A stretch of DNA of 64,000 nt, taken from the sequence record MT611523.1; one strand, written 5' to 3'. Position numbers and translations under genes: made by a program. This DNA is from Escherichia phage DK-13. Below the pieces are notes generated by a model, which was not told the origin of the DNA, did no database searches, and was given only the letters and a program-made list of their open reading frames with translations. Below, piece by piece: positions 12,604 through 46,839 of the stretch (the stretch's first letter is position 1; every line of letters begins with the position of its first letter).

Positions 12604-12885
12604 TTAGTCGTTGGCTCTATTATATGCCACATCTTCCAAAAGCAAATCCAGACGCTTATGATAAGTGAACACAAATTTAGTCGCCCCATCCGGTTTCATT
12701 TTAGTCAGGAAGTGAACATAGATAAATCCTTGCTCAACACATTCCCGCCAGATTGGGTTATCCTTGGCCGGATTAATATCAAACGAGTAATTATGATTCA
12801 CATGACGAATAAACTGGTTAACATGACCGTAATCCATCGTGGTGGTTGGGCCACGGTCTGAAATAGTATGAACGACAAACATCAA
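12604..12885 (-). CDS. hypothetical protein
   Basis: 93-aa ORF, ATGA overlap with upstream gene stop. Confidence 0.5.
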   Translation of the reverse strand: MMFVVHTISDRGPTTTMDYGHVNQFIRHVNHNYSFDINPAKDNPIWRECVEQGFIYVHFLTKMKPDGATKFVFTYHKRLDLLLEDVAYNRAND

Positions 12886-13706
12886 TTACCCCCTTGTCCG
12901 CCGGTCGGTTGATTGTACCAATATTCAATGCCAGTACCTACACGCTGGCCATATTGATATGGATATGCTGGATTATATCCAGGAGTCCACGGTTGACCAG
13001 GCTGCCAGCCTTGTTGCATTTGTTGTTGAAGACGGCGAGTTTCACGAAACAGCTCATCCAGTTTACGGAGTTCATCTGGGGTGAATTCTGGTTTGACCGG
13101 TTCATCTTTGTGTTTCAGTTTAAGCTGTCCAGCAACATCGTCCCAGTTAAAAACTTTGGAAGCCGTCTTAGGAATAGCATCACGTTCGCCACGGGCCATC
13201 CAATAAACCGGGACTTCAAGGATTTCACTCGCATGGTCGCAATGGTGTGCAAGGTCATCAATATAACAAATGACATTATATTTGGTCTTCGCTTTCTGGA
13301 ATAACTCTTCTTTAGAGGCTGTATGGCCACACATCATCACTTCTTTAAATGCGCCAGGGAACAAAGCATTCAGGTTGAATTGACGATTCAGACGGGCATC
13401 AATGGAATCACCCAGAGCTGTAACGGCCACAAAATCATATTGCTCTTTGAGGTTATTAATAACCCTTAGCGCATCTGTGTAAGGAGACAAATAGCGAATA
13501 AAATCTGAACAGTTATATTTCTCAATCAACTGTGCTCCCAACTCTTCATCACAATTGAACAGTTTACCAGGGGTCACAAATTTTTCATCCTGAATCATCT
13601 TAAGGATATGTTCCAGGGGTAAATTATATTTTTGGGCGAAATAAGGCAAGCCAGACTGCCATGACAAACATACGCCATCAATATCTGTTAAAATAACGGG
13701 TTTCAT
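12882..13706 (-). CDS. HAD-superfamily phosphatase/nucleotidase-like protein with Q/G/P/Y-rich C-terminal tail
   Basis: N-terminal HAD motif I ILTDIDGV; C-terminal QQQMQQGWQPGQPWTPGYNPAYPYQYGQ...GGQGGN low-complexity tail. Confidence 0.55.
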   Translation of the reverse strand: MKPVILTDIDGVCLSWQSGLPYFAQKYNLPLEHILKMIQDEKFVTPGKLFNCDEELGAQLIEKYNCSDFIRYLSPYTDALRVINNLKEQYDFVAVTALGDSIDARLNRQFNLNALFPGAFKEVMMCGHTASKEELFQKAKTKYNVICYIDDLAHHCDHASEILEVPVYWMARGERDAIPKTASKVFNWDDVAGQLKLKHKDEPVKPEFTPDELRKLDELFRETRRLQQQMQQGWQPGQPWTPGYNPAYPYQYGQRVGTGIEYWYNQPTGGQGGN

Positions 13707-14170
13707 AATGCATCTCTCAATTGGTTAAGTATGTCAATAAATTCTTGTTCAGTCAATATTGTATCATGAACAGTAAGGTGGCTCGCCATCGAATGCTTTA
13801 AAACTTTGCCCTTTGTAGCTTGTAATGCGTCGCGGAACCCTTTGTTTTGGAGCGCTGCTTCAAAATAAACATTTGTATACAACTCTTTCCATGATGCAGA
13901 GTATCTTGAAAAGGGAATTCCAAGCCAGAAAAGCGTCCCACGGTCCGCAGCTCTTGCATAAGCTCTTCCACTTTGCTGGGCGGCCAATCCGGACATCCCA
14001 AATATACGTTTTTGTTGTTCATGATTTCTCACCTTACACCCTTGTAGGAAGCCTTCAAGACCTCCAAACTGGATGCCATCCATAACAAAAGGCCATTTAG
14101 CAAAGTTACTTAATGCACATGATGGCCATGGGAAATTGCTTCTGATTTCTAACTCAGACATCTTTGACAC
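13703..14170 (-). CDS. NADAR-like (YbiA/DUF1768-type) domain protein
   Basis: 155 aa; LSNFAKWPFVMDGIQFGGLEGFLQGCKV resembles the NADAR signature (SNF..PF..DG..F.S.E...Q..K); motif-level only. Confidence 0.5.
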   Translation of the reverse strand: MSKMSELEIRSNFPWPSCALSNFAKWPFVMDGIQFGGLEGFLQGCKVRNHEQQKRIFGMSGLAAQQSGRAYARAADRGTLFWLGIPFSRYSASWKELYTNVYFEAALQNKGFRDALQATKGKVLKHSMASHLTVHDTILTEQEFIDILNQLRDAL

Positions 14171-34622: not shown

Positions 34623-35272
34623 AACTTACACCCTTTAACAGTCTCGATGAACAATTTACGGGCTTCAAGAGAATCGATATTTAAGATTTTCTTATAAGCA
34701 TTTAGTTTAGTTGAATACTTTTCCCAAACCAAGTCGTTAGTCTGTTCATCATGTTGGTCTATTATACCTAAAAATGAATCAAGCAAACAAAACGTTTCAA
34801 ATGAAATAACATTCGATTGGAGAAGTTTGAAAATATAACTTGTATTCACTTTAGTATTATACTCGAAAATCTCTTGGAGCGATTTGACTTCGACTTTCTT
34901 ACTGAAGTAATAGATGTTCTTTATATCATCTTCGTATACTTGTCTAATTCTTTTAAGTCGGCCAATGTATTCTCTATAAAATATCAGAGCATCGGCATCA
35001 CTTATATCGCCTATCCATGCATCCTGGTTCGCAACCAGGTTTGACATGAATATTAACGTTAATTCTTTAAGAGTGTACTTATCGCTAAGCTTTTCGAAAA
35101 AATACTTATCGCGACGTTTTTGATAAGCACTATCGGAGATTCGCATGGTCCAGTTATATTTGATAATATCATAACGACCCGAAAAATGCTGTTTGATGGA
35201 TAAGTACAGTTGGTATACTGATTTACCATTTATATATCGGTTGTTATTTGGAGGCATGCGAATCGTAATCAT
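34619..35272 (-). CDS. 59: helicase loader gp59
   Basis: 217 aa (same as T4 gp59), position between 33 and 32; ATGA overlap with gene 33. Confidence 0.8.
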   Translation of the reverse strand: MITIRMPPNNNRYINGKSVYQLYLSIKQHFSGRYDIIKYNWTMRISDSAYQKRRDKYFFEKLSDKYTLKELTLIFMSNLVANQDAWIGDISDADALIFYREYIGRLKRIRQVYEDDIKNIYYFSKKVEVKSLQEIFEYNTKVNTSYIFKLLQSNVISFETFCLLDSFLGIIDQHDEQTNDLVWEKYSTKLNAYKKILNIDSLEARKLFIETVKGCKF

Positions 35273-35562
35273 AACAAAAAGTCCAGCGTATTAGTTTTCT
35301 GTGTACGAGACATACTTGGGCGAAGCAGGTTATCATCATATGCTTCATTCATAATCTTATCAATGATTCCCGCAGGAATGTATCGTGCAAAATTACCTTC
35401 AGGAATTCCACGTTCTTCCAACCAGGCGGTCGCAGCTTCCAGATAAGACATTTCAGTTGACTCAACCATGGCTTCAATATCAAGCCCATTTTGCTGCTTA
35501 CTAATCGCCCCGGAAGGCGATTCAGTTTTCTGTGTATCGAAATTAACTAAAGAGGACATCAT
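35269..35562 (-). CDS. 33: late transcription co-activator gp33
   Basis: Start moved to ATGATG after GTGGAG SD, overlapping dsbA 3' end; C-terminal ...LLRPS...KTNTLDFLL resembles T4 gp33. Confidence 0.7.
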   Translation of the reverse strand: MMSSLVNFDTQKTESPSGAISKQQNGLDIEAMVESTEMSYLEAATAWLEERGIPEGNFARYIPAGIIDKIMNEAYDDNLLRPSMSRTQKTNTLDFLL

Positions 35563-35812
35563 AGAGCTCCACAGCTTCGGTTTTTTCATCTTCAAAACGT
35601 TCACGAGTGCCTTTATGATACAGGCCGAGCTGTGTATTGAACATCTTACCGTCAACGCCTAATTCAGTTTTTGCCTTATCTTTAAGGTCTTTAATTTCGT
35701 CTGCATATGCTTCCATTTTTAATTTGGTATCGGAAGCAGCTTTAATCAGCTTGGCTAGTTCAGCACCATGAGTATCAGGACAAAATTCAACTTTCACTTT
35801 TTTCTCTTTCAT
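35543..35812 (-). CDS. dsbA: double-stranded DNA-binding protein DsbA
   Basis: 89 aa (same as T4 DsbA), position between rnh and 33. Confidence 0.75.
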   Translation of the reverse strand: MKEKKVKVEFCPDTHGAELAKLIKAASDTKLKMEAYADEIKDLKDKAKTELGVDGKMFNTQLGLYHKGTRERFEDEKTEAVELYDVLFS

Positions 35813-46016: not shown

Positions 46017-46030
46017 GGGCTTCGGCCCCT
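46017..46030 (+). promoter_or_regulatory. UUCG-loop hairpin immediately 5' of the gene 38 Shine-Dalgarno
   Basis: GGGGCTTCGGCCCC followed by TTGGAGGTTTATATG. Confidence 0.45.
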
Positions 46031-46839
46031 TGGAGGTTTATATGGCAGTAGTAGGACCATGGGTTGGAGGGTCTGCAGTAGCTAATACAGGACAAAACTG
46101 GATGGGTGGCGCGGCCCAACGATTAAGAATGGGTGCTCCGTTTTGGATGAGCAATATGATAGGTCGGTCTGTTGAAGTAATTCATACTTTAGGTGGAGAC
46201 CATAACTTTAATGGGCAATGGTTTAGAGACCGTTGTTTTGAAGCCGGCGCTGCGCCTATTGTGTTTAATCTTACAGATACATTAGTATCTTATACCCCTG
46301 ATGTTCCATTGTTCTTTATGTATGCGGATACTCCAAACGAATACGTTGTTTTGAATATTCATGGTGGGGTTCATATGTGGGGACGTGGTGGTCACGGCGG
46401 TTGGACCCACTCAGGTGGAGACGGTAACGGCCAACGGGGTGGTGATTGTATAGTCAACCATATAGGTCATAGACTACGTATTTGGAACTATGGGGTTATC
46501 TGCGGCGGTGGCGGAGGCGGAGGCGGTATTGCTTATCGACCTCACTCAGGTGCTAACTGGCAAGATATCGGCGGTGGCGGCGGACGTCCATTTGGTCCAG
46601 GTGGTGGTGGCGGGTATTCCGGCGGCGGCGCTTCTTATGAAAGCCCTGGCGGTGGATACGATTATGGTAACGCCCACTCAGGTCGTGGCGGGGATGCCGG
46701 CGGTGCAGGCCAGAACGCATGGTCTGATGGTGGTAAAGTTCTAAAAGTCGGAGCCGGTGGCGGTTCTGGAGCTGCTGTTGCCGGTTATGCTCCTGCATGG
46801 GGCGCGACAGGTACGATTTACGGTCCTTGGCTTAGTTAA
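46030..46839 (+). CDS. 38: T2-type tail fibre adhesin gp38 with glycine-rich motifs
   Basis: 269 aa; poly-Gly tracts [48 protein letters not shown]. Confidence 0.85.

Follow-up and report, generated by a model that had tools for sequence, protein, structure and literature searches.

Gene 30.2 of Escherichia phage DK-13 encodes a HAD-like protein with a predicted disordered C-terminal tail that may act as a docking arm

The HAD-like protein gp30.2 of Escherichia phage DK-13 ends in a low-complexity tail. We interpret it as a genuine translated extension, a fast-evolving disordered arm that may dock the enzyme to a partner protein, and put the probability of this reading at roughly one half. 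The window, the whole stretch of DNA analysed here, is 64,000 nucleotides of sequence record MT611523.1. The tail peptide, RRLQQQMQQGWQPGQPWTPGYNPAYPYQYGQRVGTGIEYWYNQPTGGQGGN, is the exact C-terminus of gp30.2 (aa 224-274) and is encoded at 12885..13037 on the minus strand. Gene 30.2 runs on the minus strand, which puts the tail at the low-coordinate end of the gene; the original prediction had placed it at 13500..13706, positions that encode the N-terminus with HAD motif I (aa 1-69).

The gene (12882..13706, minus strand) translates to 274 aa, a HAD-like protein with a C-terminal extension, followed by a TGA stop. The genome is that of a Gaprivervirus, an SP18/VR7-like relative of T4, and its gene 30.2 is 95-96% identical in nucleotide sequence to the corresponding region of SP18, VR7, UPEC01, and their relatives. 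Gene 30.2 is flanked by 30.3 and by 30.1/ligase. The stop of the upstream gene, 30.3 (Phage_30_3; 13703..14170, minus strand; Pfam PF08010, E 5e-64), overlaps the 30.2 start, and the downstream gene, 30.1 (DUF3045; 12604..12882, minus strand; Pfam PF11243, E 1.7e-18, as in the SP18 and VR7 annotations), is translationally coupled. The protein matches PHROG 420 over residues 1-268 (E 7.5e-79) and is conserved across T4-like phages, with matches in 1,438 phage records of the collection searched. A literature search found neither a described function nor interaction data for gp30.2, and it matched none of the PADLOC families of known defence and anti-defence proteins.

The first 200 residues (13107..13706, minus strand) form a HAD-fold core, modelled by AF2 with pLDDT >90 throughout. 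This agrees with the original description of the protein as HAD-like. The core carries motif I (D8-I-D10-G-V), motif II (T96), motif III (K132), and motif IV (D150-D151) of HAD phosphatases; in 89 homologues T96 is conserved to at least 90%, and D8, D10, K132, D150, and D151 never vary. Both the AF2 model and the PDB matches point to a Rossmann-like HAD fold. There are 114 PDB matches at E <=1e-3, the best 50 of which are all HAD-superfamily structures, and the highest Foldseek ranks go to 5′(3′)-deoxyribonucleotidases, both cytosolic and mitochondrial (2jao, E 2.9e-8), along with further HAD hydrolases. The mammalian cdN and mdN enzymes (PDB 2jao, 2i7d, 1q92), the best structural matches, share the HAD fold and the DxD nucleophile motif, but identity is only 16-17% and the matched chains (about 190-200 residues) are about as long as the gp30.2 core alone. 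We rejected membership of the 5′(3′)-deoxyribonucleotidase (NT5C) sequence family, as the likeness is at the level of fold (17% identity). No Pfam or NCBIfam family scored above threshold for the core, and no solved structure was a significant sequence relative (phmmer against 2jao, E 0.33). From the conserved motifs and the model, the catalytic core of this early-region protein is intact and appears phosphatase/nucleotidase-like.

The tail is compositionally extreme, as originally claimed. Gln, Asn, Gly, Pro, and Tyr make up 0.71 of its 51 residues, about 6.7 sd above the mean (0.22, sd 0.07) and the highest value among 22,335 51-aa windows taken from all stop-to-stop ORFs of at least 80 aa within the window. 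Its Shannon entropy is 3.29 bits, compared with about 4.0 for the core. Between core and tail, AF2 predicts a low-confidence linker (aa 201-209) and an amphipathic helix, aa 210-232 (PDELRKLDELFRETRRLQQQMQQ; 13011..13079, minus strand), with pLDDT of about 85-90 in a first run; in a second run the helix spans aa 210-230. This helix matches the coiled-coil-like segment that had been noted ahead of the tail.

The remaining residues, aa 233-274 (12885..13010, minus strand), are predicted to be intrinsically disordered on the basis of AF2, FoldIndex, and composition. They include nine aromatics (W234, W240, Y244, Y248, Y250, Y252, Y262, W263, and Y264), 10 Gly, 6 Pro, 6 Gln, 3 Asn, one acidic, and one basic residue. 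In the first AF2 run, which used a deep alignment, pLDDT is <50 over approximately aa 233-274. In the second, aligned with carriers of a conserved tail motif only (motif B, below), it is <50 except at 261-265, where it stays <70; the sole element is a low-confidence four-residue helix at 261-264. The tail has a FoldIndex of -0.17, and the charged fraction of the last 45 residues is 0.04. The globular HAD enzyme genuinely bears a low-complexity appendage, as originally described.

Substitution patterns indicate that the tail is genuine coding sequence under protein-level selection in Gaprivervirus. Comparison of nine Gaprivervirus genes gave a pN/pS of 0.064 over aa 224-274, 0.034 over the core, and 0.185 over aa 191-223, values summed from non-independent pairs of a few genomes. 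For aa 224-274 the pairwise differences comprise 389 synonymous and 88 nonsynonymous changes (pS 0.34, pN 0.022). The Gaprivervirus genes are 813, 816, 825, or 849 nt long, differing by multiples of 3, and no indel breaks the frame; phages P479 and 212 carry the YNPAYPYQ unit (aa 244-251; 12954..12977, minus strand) as a 24-nt in-frame tandem duplication. The pN/pS of 0.064 and the in-frame indels rule out an origin by recent frameshift or from non-coding sequence, an explanation the original prediction had allowed for. Because the tail is real coding sequence, an ORF on the opposite strand (12894..13304, plus strand) is spurious.

Constraint differs in another genus. In Tequatrovirus, pN/pS is 0.355 for the tail and 0.016 for the core (again non-independent pairs from few genomes), which indicates weak constraint, and the tails contain NPY/HPY repeats. 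From these sequences, a composition-dependent or partly relaxed function would fit Tequatrovirus better than a strict motif.

Tails are also unevenly distributed. They are missing in about half of the homologue clusters, and 57 of 117 sequences have <40 post-core residues. The sister genus Dhakavirus has no tail (AnYang, 212 aa), nor do many distant T4-like phages. The concern that the tail might be absent or unconserved in orthologues therefore holds for Dhakavirus and those clusters but not within Gaprivervirus, where it is conserved. Gln/Gly richness is specific to Gaprivervirus; other genera have Pro/aromatic tails of different sequence with no Gln/Gly enrichment. Nearly all tail classes have a proline fraction of 0.11-0.17, against 0.04 in the core, together with a slight excess of aromatics. 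This is a cautionary case, in which a makeup that appears prion-like in one genus becomes a general Pro/aromatic disordered tail once orthologues are compared.

Two short islands within the disordered segment are semi-conserved. Motif A, W234-Q-P-G237 (WxxPG; 12996..13007, minus strand), aligns with WRTPG, WVNPG, or WK(A/S)PD elsewhere, WRTPG being the form in Tequatrovirus and Mosigvirus tails. Motif B, G257-T-G-I-E-Y-W-Y-N-Q-P-T268 (12903..12938, minus strand), recurs in 17 clusters with 46-66% identity to the query, where (G)TG[IVL]E[YW][LYW]xx[QR]PT lies 6-10 residues before the C-terminus. In 19 clusters of motif-B-type orthologues (46-70% identity), E261 is 100% conserved and W234, Y262, P267, and T268 are each at least 90% conserved. 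Codons for motif B differ between genera, so conservation is at the protein level. As in a tether that carries short linear motifs, W234, E261, Y262, P267, and T268 are kept, the flanks are unalignable, and the segment is predicted to be disordered. Neither motif was found in the other proteins of the window. When viral contigs were scanned for the motifs, all matches were to gp30.2 in T4-like genomes about 170 kb long; bacteria and archaea, each species represented by a single genome, gave zero matches.

We propose that gp30.2 has four parts: the core (aa 1-200), the linker and helix up to aa 232 (helix 210-232), a disordered stretch some 42 residues long, and the two islands inside that stretch. 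The tail would act as a flexible tether of the enzyme, with its aromatics and islands engaging a partner protein weakly or as short linear motifs. Such contact could place or regulate the enzyme within the infected cell. Candidate partners are a component of phage replication, repair, or nucleotide metabolism, or a host protein. The tail evolves quickly by in-frame gain or loss of short Tyr/Pro units, and the whole of it can be lost while the enzyme remains. Among the roles first suggested for the tail, protein docking appears the best supported. Natural loss of motif B, which has eroded to PGDAGY-FNR(L/F)T in two Tequatrovirus isolates and is missing from Mosigvirus tails, counts against this reading, as do the weak constraint on Tequatrovirus tails and the failure to find either motif in another protein of the window. 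Deletion and tail-swap mutants, together with peptides of the two islands, offer a concrete experimental handle on the enzyme's place and partners in the infected cell.

Known systems resemble the tail in part. T4 gp33, gp55, and gp43 carry C-terminal clamp-binding peptides, and gp33 in the window ends in ...TNTLDFLL at its extreme C-terminus. Like motif B, these peptides place a short hydrophobic-acidic-aromatic-Leu island (LDFL compared with IEYW/IEYL) near the C-terminus after a flexible segment, and they and gp30.2 are early or middle proteins of the T4 family. Unlike them, motif B is 6-10 residues from the end, the likeness covers four residues, and some isolates have lost it, so the analogy may serve as a lead and not as membership. 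We rejected motif B as a gp45 clamp-binding C-terminal peptide, which would sit at the extreme C-terminus. Bacterial SSB consists of a folded domain, a Gly/Gln/Pro-rich disordered linker, and a conserved docking tip. The gp30.2 arrangement is similar, in that a disordered Gly/Gln/Pro-rich linker of repeat-dependent length follows a folded domain and bears a short conserved element with a putative docking role, but the gp30.2 tail has no acidic tip and contains far more Tyr and Trp. When the tail was compared with E. coli SSB by BLASTP, no match was obtained. Searching with a tail-only profile revealed no further protein family with a convincing version of the tail.

The reading originally favoured, a sticker-and-spacer or prion-like domain, holds that Tyr and Trp spread evenly through Gly/Gln/Pro/Asn drive self-association, condensates, or amyloid-like assembly, with tandemly duplicated Tyr/Pro units adjusting the valence. 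We consider it unlikely. It would account for nine aromatics and two charged residues in 42, for composition but not sequence being kept across genera, and for the in-frame Tyr-rich duplications (YNPAYPYQ in P479 and 212, NPY/HPY in Tequatrovirus), and the amphipathic helix ahead of the tail could add oligomeric valence. The tail also combines predicted disorder with few charged or aliphatic residues, as is required of a prion domain. The Michelitsch-Weissman criterion asks for at least 30 Gln+Asn per 80-residue window, and the default core length of PLAAC is about 60 residues. No 80-aa window of gp30.2 has more than 14 Gln+Asn, the biased segment is about 42-51 aa, and the Gln/Gly enrichment occurs in one genus only. 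The tail is short for autonomous phase separation, and a purely compositional function would need no conserved islands. By its Gln+Asn count, the tail falls short of the formal definition of a prion domain, and the label prion-like is not supported.

A survey of phage prion-like domains points the same way. In the portion of the PLAAC survey available to us (Tetz and Tetz 2017, PMC5694896), which used a very permissive LLR cutoff of 0.003, the entries for VR7, VR20, VR25, and VR26 are tail-fibre and baseplate proteins only, and gp30.2 is not on that list. The domains catalogued in that portion resemble the tail in low complexity, few charges, Gln/Asn/Gly/Tyr content, and disorder, but differ from it in that the Gln/Asn density and length of the tail are below threshold and its character is not kept in orthologues.

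Low-complexity domains of the aromatic sticker-spacer type, as in FUS and hnRNPA1, are 130-200 residues long. They resemble the tail in having regularly spaced Tyr and Trp in a polar Gly/Gln/Asn/Pro background and in varying in repeat number; the gp30.2 tail is about 42 residues and has conserved islands. Elements of this type could also be joined with docking. The tail would then be a phage-evolved, valence-tunable aromatic arm by which a phosphatase acting on nucleotides or DNA ends is drawn into a compartment, membrane-less or close to the membrane, for replication and nucleotide metabolism in cells infected by T4-type phages, a proposal we regard as rather improbable. If it were true, the WxxPG and GIEYL islands would act alongside Tyr/Trp contacts, and tandem gain or loss of YNPAYPYQ and NPY/HPY would adjust partitioning between lineages.

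The tail-coding DNA also appears to carry signals for its neighbours. A Shine-Dalgarno-like AAGGGGG lies in codons Q271-G273, within CAAGGGGGTAATTGATG (12880..12896, minus strand), where the 30.2 TGA overlaps the 30.1 ATG; the last tail codons thus double, as read from the DNA, as the putative ribosome-binding site of gene 30.1. A counterpart, CCAAGGAGCATTCTAATG, is invariant in seven Tequatrovirus genes. There is also a sigma-70-like site at 12972..12999 (minus strand), with a -35 TGGTCA, a 16-nt spacer, and a -10 TATAAT in the Tyr244-Asn245 codons (10/12 match). Among the genes tested, its score is 9-11/12 throughout Gaprivervirus and 10/12 in RB32, and it is missing from Mosigvirus, Karamvirus-like, and Dhakavirus genes. 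The count of such sites in the region is not above that in shuffles, and this one is possibly incidental.

These signals raise the alternative that the tail is a near-neutral appendage, whose 3′ part is kept for expression of 30.1 and 30 (ribosome-binding site, start overlap, possible internal promoter) and whose peptide has little function. The stop/start overlap in the last codons, the perfect TATAAT in Gaprivervirus and RB32, the common tail-less orthologues, and an invariant terminal 25 nt in Tequatrovirus, upstream of which the tail drifts, would fit it. We nevertheless consider it quite unlikely. The Gaprivervirus pS of 0.34 against a pN of 0.022 is a signature of protein-level and not DNA-level constraint, and motif B is kept across genera despite scrambled codons. 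Mosigvirus and Karamvirus-like genes keep tails that lack the promoter-like site, and the signals would require about 20-90 nt, not about 190.

Anchoring at the membrane is very unlikely. A Trp/Tyr/Pro segment could enter the inner-membrane interface and hold the enzyme close to machinery for replication or nucleotide synthesis that is associated with the membrane; membrane interfaces are favoured by aromatic residues, and most tail-bearing clades are rich in Trp, Tyr, and Pro (FPWNTTWRTPGFNPY in T4-type phages, PWWTIQNF in Mosigvirus). Against this, aa 233-274 contain no amphipathic or hydrophobic stretch, and the Gaprivervirus tail is almost devoid of basic residues for anionic lipid. That motif B folds back onto the core, for instance over the active site or a dimer interface, and gates activity is highly improbable, for although islands in disordered tails are also typical of autoinhibitory pseudo-substrate segments and the HAD cap region is variable, neither AF2 run gave a confident tail contact or structure, even with the alignment of motif-B carriers, and the catalytic residues are all kept in tail-less orthologues.

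The tail-only profile also matched small metagenomic ORFs of 76-81 aa that end in GTGIEYLxRQPTSK (E 0.26-1.5). Both ends of this small-ORF module are invariant at synonymous sites and complementary to each other, and the same termini (the CTTGACTGGTGGG...CCCACCAGCAAG element) bound a multi-copy repeat in Chloroflexota genomes, the interior of which is non-coding. The exhaustive reciprocal search, with a profile of the small ORFs, yielded no gp30.2 at E <=1e-3. The tail DNA of the window has no inverted repeat like that of the module, only two 9-nt pairs of 89% complementarity, and a DNA or RNA element in the gp30.2 tail was rejected for this reason. We likewise rejected a portable C-terminal motif common to gp30.2 and the small ORFs. 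In view of the weak E-values, the failed reciprocal search, the complementary invariant ends, and the Chloroflexota repeat termini, the resemblance is probably coincidental and the chance of a real relationship appears small. Scans of DNA found further small ORFs with a GTGIEYLxRQPTSK-like end.

The Gln/Gly/Pro/Tyr-rich peptide belongs to gene 30.2, a 274 amino acid ORF on the minus strand (12882..13706), in which nucleotides 12885..13037 (minus) code for the 51-residue tail (aa 224-274). The original prediction placed the tail at 13500..13706, but given the strand of the gene this interval encodes the N-terminus of gp30.2 (MKPVILTDIDGV...). The DNA of the region is 93-96% identical to that of SP18, VR7, VR20, UPEC01 and similar phages (genus Gaprivervirus, Tevenvirinae), where the gene is annotated as 30.2. 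It is flanked by gene 30.3 (Pfam Phage_30_3; 13703..14170) and, on the other side, by gene 30.1 (DUF3045; 12604..12882), followed by DNA ligase. A putative 74 amino acid ORF in another frame within gene 30.3 (13798-14022, minus) corresponds to the feature annotated 30.3′ in VR7 and VR25. Pfam and NCBIfam searches returned no family for gp30.2 and literature searches found nothing on it; the protein is placed in PHROG 420 (labelled “unknown function”), and 1,438 phage records have a tblastn match. One short metagenomic contig (L052:234-1142) encodes a 302 amino acid protein (P0021) in which a tail-less gp30.2 core is joined in frame to a gp30.1 (DUF3045) domain. This fusion could be read as a Rosetta-stone hint of joint action by 30.2 and 30.1, or as an assembly or sequencing error.

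The protein was correctly labelled HAD-like, based on fold matches and conserved motifs. Residues 1-200 are modeled with pLDDT >90 (AlphaFold2, 89 homologues), and the Foldseek matches listed from the PDB (the best 50 of 114) are solely HAD hydrolases. The closest are cytosolic and mitochondrial 5′(3′)-deoxyribonucleotidases (2jao, E 2.9e-8, 17% identity); membership of gp30.2 in that family is not established. All four HAD motifs are kept, with D8, D10, K132, D150 and D151 invariant and T96 at least 90% conserved.

The tail is genuinely biased in composition. Of its 51 residues, 71% are Q, N, G, P or Y, a share that ranks first among 22,335 same-size windows from all long ORFs in the 64-kb window (mean 22%, sd 7%). 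Within the window, only the extremely glycine-rich ORF at 46030..46839 (+), especially ~46290-46830, contains a tract of comparable bias. This ORF comes after a 1109 amino acid gp37-like gene, and the tract probably represents the glycine-rich motifs found in tail-fibre adhesins of the gp38 type.

Across nine Gaprivervirus genes the tail has pS 0.34, pN 0.022 and pN/pS 0.064 (0.034 for the core and 0.185 for aa 191-223). Gene lengths in the genus are 813, 816, 825 and 849 nt and all indels are in frame: QQQ is deleted, QR is deleted, the final two codons are lost, or 24 nt are duplicated in tandem (YNPAYPYQ repeated). The few nonsynonymous and many synonymous changes, together with the in-frame indels, exclude a recent frameshift into non-coding DNA, and the tail is genuine coding sequence under purifying selection.

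Orthologues retain the tail in part: it is present within Gaprivervirus but missing in the sister genus Dhakavirus, although the Dhakavirus core is nearest to that of DK-13 (73-81% identity). Fewer than 40 residues follow the core in 57 of 117 sequences (DK-13 plus 116 homologue clusters), including Acinetobacter, Salmonella, Serratia, Citrobacter and Shewanella phages, and tblastn matches in Aeromonas phages stop near residue 175. Gene 30.2 of Dhakavirus AnYang (L024:786-1424; 639 nt, 212 amino acids, ending ...AALESLRNNAAVEWIARG, 32-nt overlap with 30.1) is a natural tail-less form usable as a control. Tailed forms fall into several classes by ending (GIEYLxxQPT, LRAYY, YxLLN, ALLGM, LRASF). 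Proline is at 0.11-0.17 in nearly all classes (0.08 in LRAYY) versus 0.04 in the core and aromatics are slightly enriched in most, with no general enrichment of Gly or Q/N (0.09-0.13). The DK-13 tail has Q/N 0.24, Gly 0.22 and charged residues 0.04, a composition peculiar to Gaprivervirus.

Two islands recur. The Trp of WxxPG (W234 in DK-13) is found across genera: T4-type phages and Mosigvirus have WRTPG, and phages of Klebsiella and Enterobacter have WVNPG or WKAPD. In 17 clusters of 46-66% identity, the second island, motif B (G257-T268; (G)TG[IVL]E[YW][LYW]xx[QR]PT), is positioned 6-10 residues before the C-terminus. Motif B is absent from Mosigvirus tails and is dispensable. In the Tequatrovirus phages Paracelsus (L049) and EPIMAM01 (L051) it is eroded through point changes and a 3-nt deletion; the final ~90 nt of 30.2 encode PGDAGY-FNR(L/F)T in place of motif B (PGGIEYLYNRPT), plus extra NPYYTHPY repeats. 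These phages are natural motif-B knock-outs for comparison. The tail is weakly constrained in seven Tequatrovirus genes (pN/pS 0.355 versus 0.016 for the core) and varies through NPY/HPY repeats that stay in frame, with protein lengths of 278-287 amino acids.

The tail lies in translated-frame DNA under purifying selection, is modular and losable, has two semi-conserved islands, and overlaps 30.1 expression signals. It is predicted to be disordered: in the AlphaFold2 model residues 210-232 form a helix (pLDDT ~85-90) and 233-274 are unstructured (about 38-56), and FoldIndex is +0.14 for the core versus -0.17 for 233-274. We propose, at a probability of about 50%, that the tail would serve as a flexible interaction arm that docks or tethers gp30.2 to a partner. 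A weak lead is the gp45 sliding clamp. A gp33-like ORF (35269-35655, minus) ends in ...TNTLDFLL, and TLDFLL is a C-terminal peptide of the kind bound by the clamp. Motif B has the same hydrophobic-acidic-aromatic pattern (IEY[L/W]), but the likeness spans four residues only and motif B stops short of the extreme C-terminus.

The first-ranked alternative, homotypic association or condensate behavior, is unlikely. The looser grammar of aromatic stickers in a polar spacer fits the tail, as does its repeat-number variation, so it may have a role in self-association. The description as prion-like was an overstatement. The classical cutoff is at least 30 Q/N per 80-residue window; the richest such window here has 14, far fewer, the biased stretch is 42-51 residues, and the composition is not conserved beyond Gaprivervirus. 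In a PLAAC survey of phage proteomes (LLR cutoff 0.003; Tetz and Tetz, PMC5694896), the entries listed for VR7, VR20, VR25 and VR26 are tail-fibre and baseplate proteins only, and the absence of gp30.2 among them is supportive but not conclusive evidence against a prion-like reading. The tail is a genuine feature of an ordinary type: a low-complexity C-terminal extension, predicted disordered, on an uncharacterised enzyme.

Somewhat more doubtful is retention of the tail DNA at the nucleic acid level with little peptide function. A Shine-Dalgarno-like AAGGGGG and the stop/start overlap (12880-12896, minus) lie in codons CAA GGG GGT AAT TGA TG: Q271-G-G-N-stop holds AAGGGGG, and TGATG overlaps the 30.2 stop with the 30.1 ATG. 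The Tequatrovirus counterpart CCAAGGAGCATTCTAATG (AAGGAG ... TAATG) is invariant in seven genes while the upstream tail drifts, so the terminal “QG” residues are partly set by the 30.1 ribosome-binding site. A sigma-70-like site (TGGTCA, 16 nt, TATAAT; 10/12) at 12972..12999 (minus), ~90 nt upstream of 30.1, has the Tyr244-Asn245 codon pair as its -10 box. The site is conserved across Gaprivervirus and also occurs in RB32, is absent from Mosigvirus, Karamvirus-like and Dhakavirus 30.2 genes, and is possibly incidental; such sites are no commoner in the tail region than in shuffled sequence. Motif B is spelled with different codons in different genera and is thus conserved as protein.

Association with a membrane interface is improbable, and intramolecular regulation by the tail is least probable of all: in a second AlphaFold2 run, with an alignment limited to 19 sequences sharing the C-terminal motif and so favouring intramolecular docking, the tail still lacked structure (pLDDT 34-45), and the one exception was a 4-residue helix at 261-264 of low confidence.

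A tail-only profile also retrieved small ORFs (76-81 amino acids) ending GTGIEYLxRQPTSK. Back-translated motif scans found five further carriers in metagenomes, matched gp30.2 alone in viral contigs, and gave zero matches in 185,579 species genomes. We rejected a portable docking motif common to both: profile E-values are 0.26-1.5, the small-ORF profile, searched exhaustively in the reciprocal direction, returned 24 small proteins and no gp30.2, and the module ends CTTGACTGGTGGG...CCCACCAGCAAG are invariant, mutually complementary and without synonymous variation. We conclude that the module is a nucleic-acid-level repeat element belonging to an unrelated host lineage, and that the likeness of its peptide to motif B is most likely a coincidence.

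The same ends border a multi-copy 95-nt repeat with a non-coding interior in Chloroflexota (Anaerolineae) genomes, with at least five copies on scaffold JAIOOU010000003.1; neither an Rfam family nor a tRNA match was found. The ~95-nt element (ends GC[G/T]TGCACTTGACTGGTGGG ... CCCACCAGCAAGTAA[C/A]GC) occurs at L009:792-885, L011:750-843 and L012:373-466 (+), at L019:3130-3223, L020:2206-2299, L021:458-551 and L022:8268-8361 (minus; L022 is a tailed-phage contig), and in genome records L027-L045. A variant on uncultured phage-like contigs makes up the final 31 codons and stop (...LTGGILPPSEPLSxPxxGTGIEYLxHQPTSK*) of many small ORFs whose N-termini are unrelated, and some ORFs with a common N-terminus part ways precisely at the element boundary. 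The element could be a palindromic repeat, a MITE-like element or a structured RNA that supplies C-termini; its stem has one compensatory change (G-C to U-A) between the two versions.
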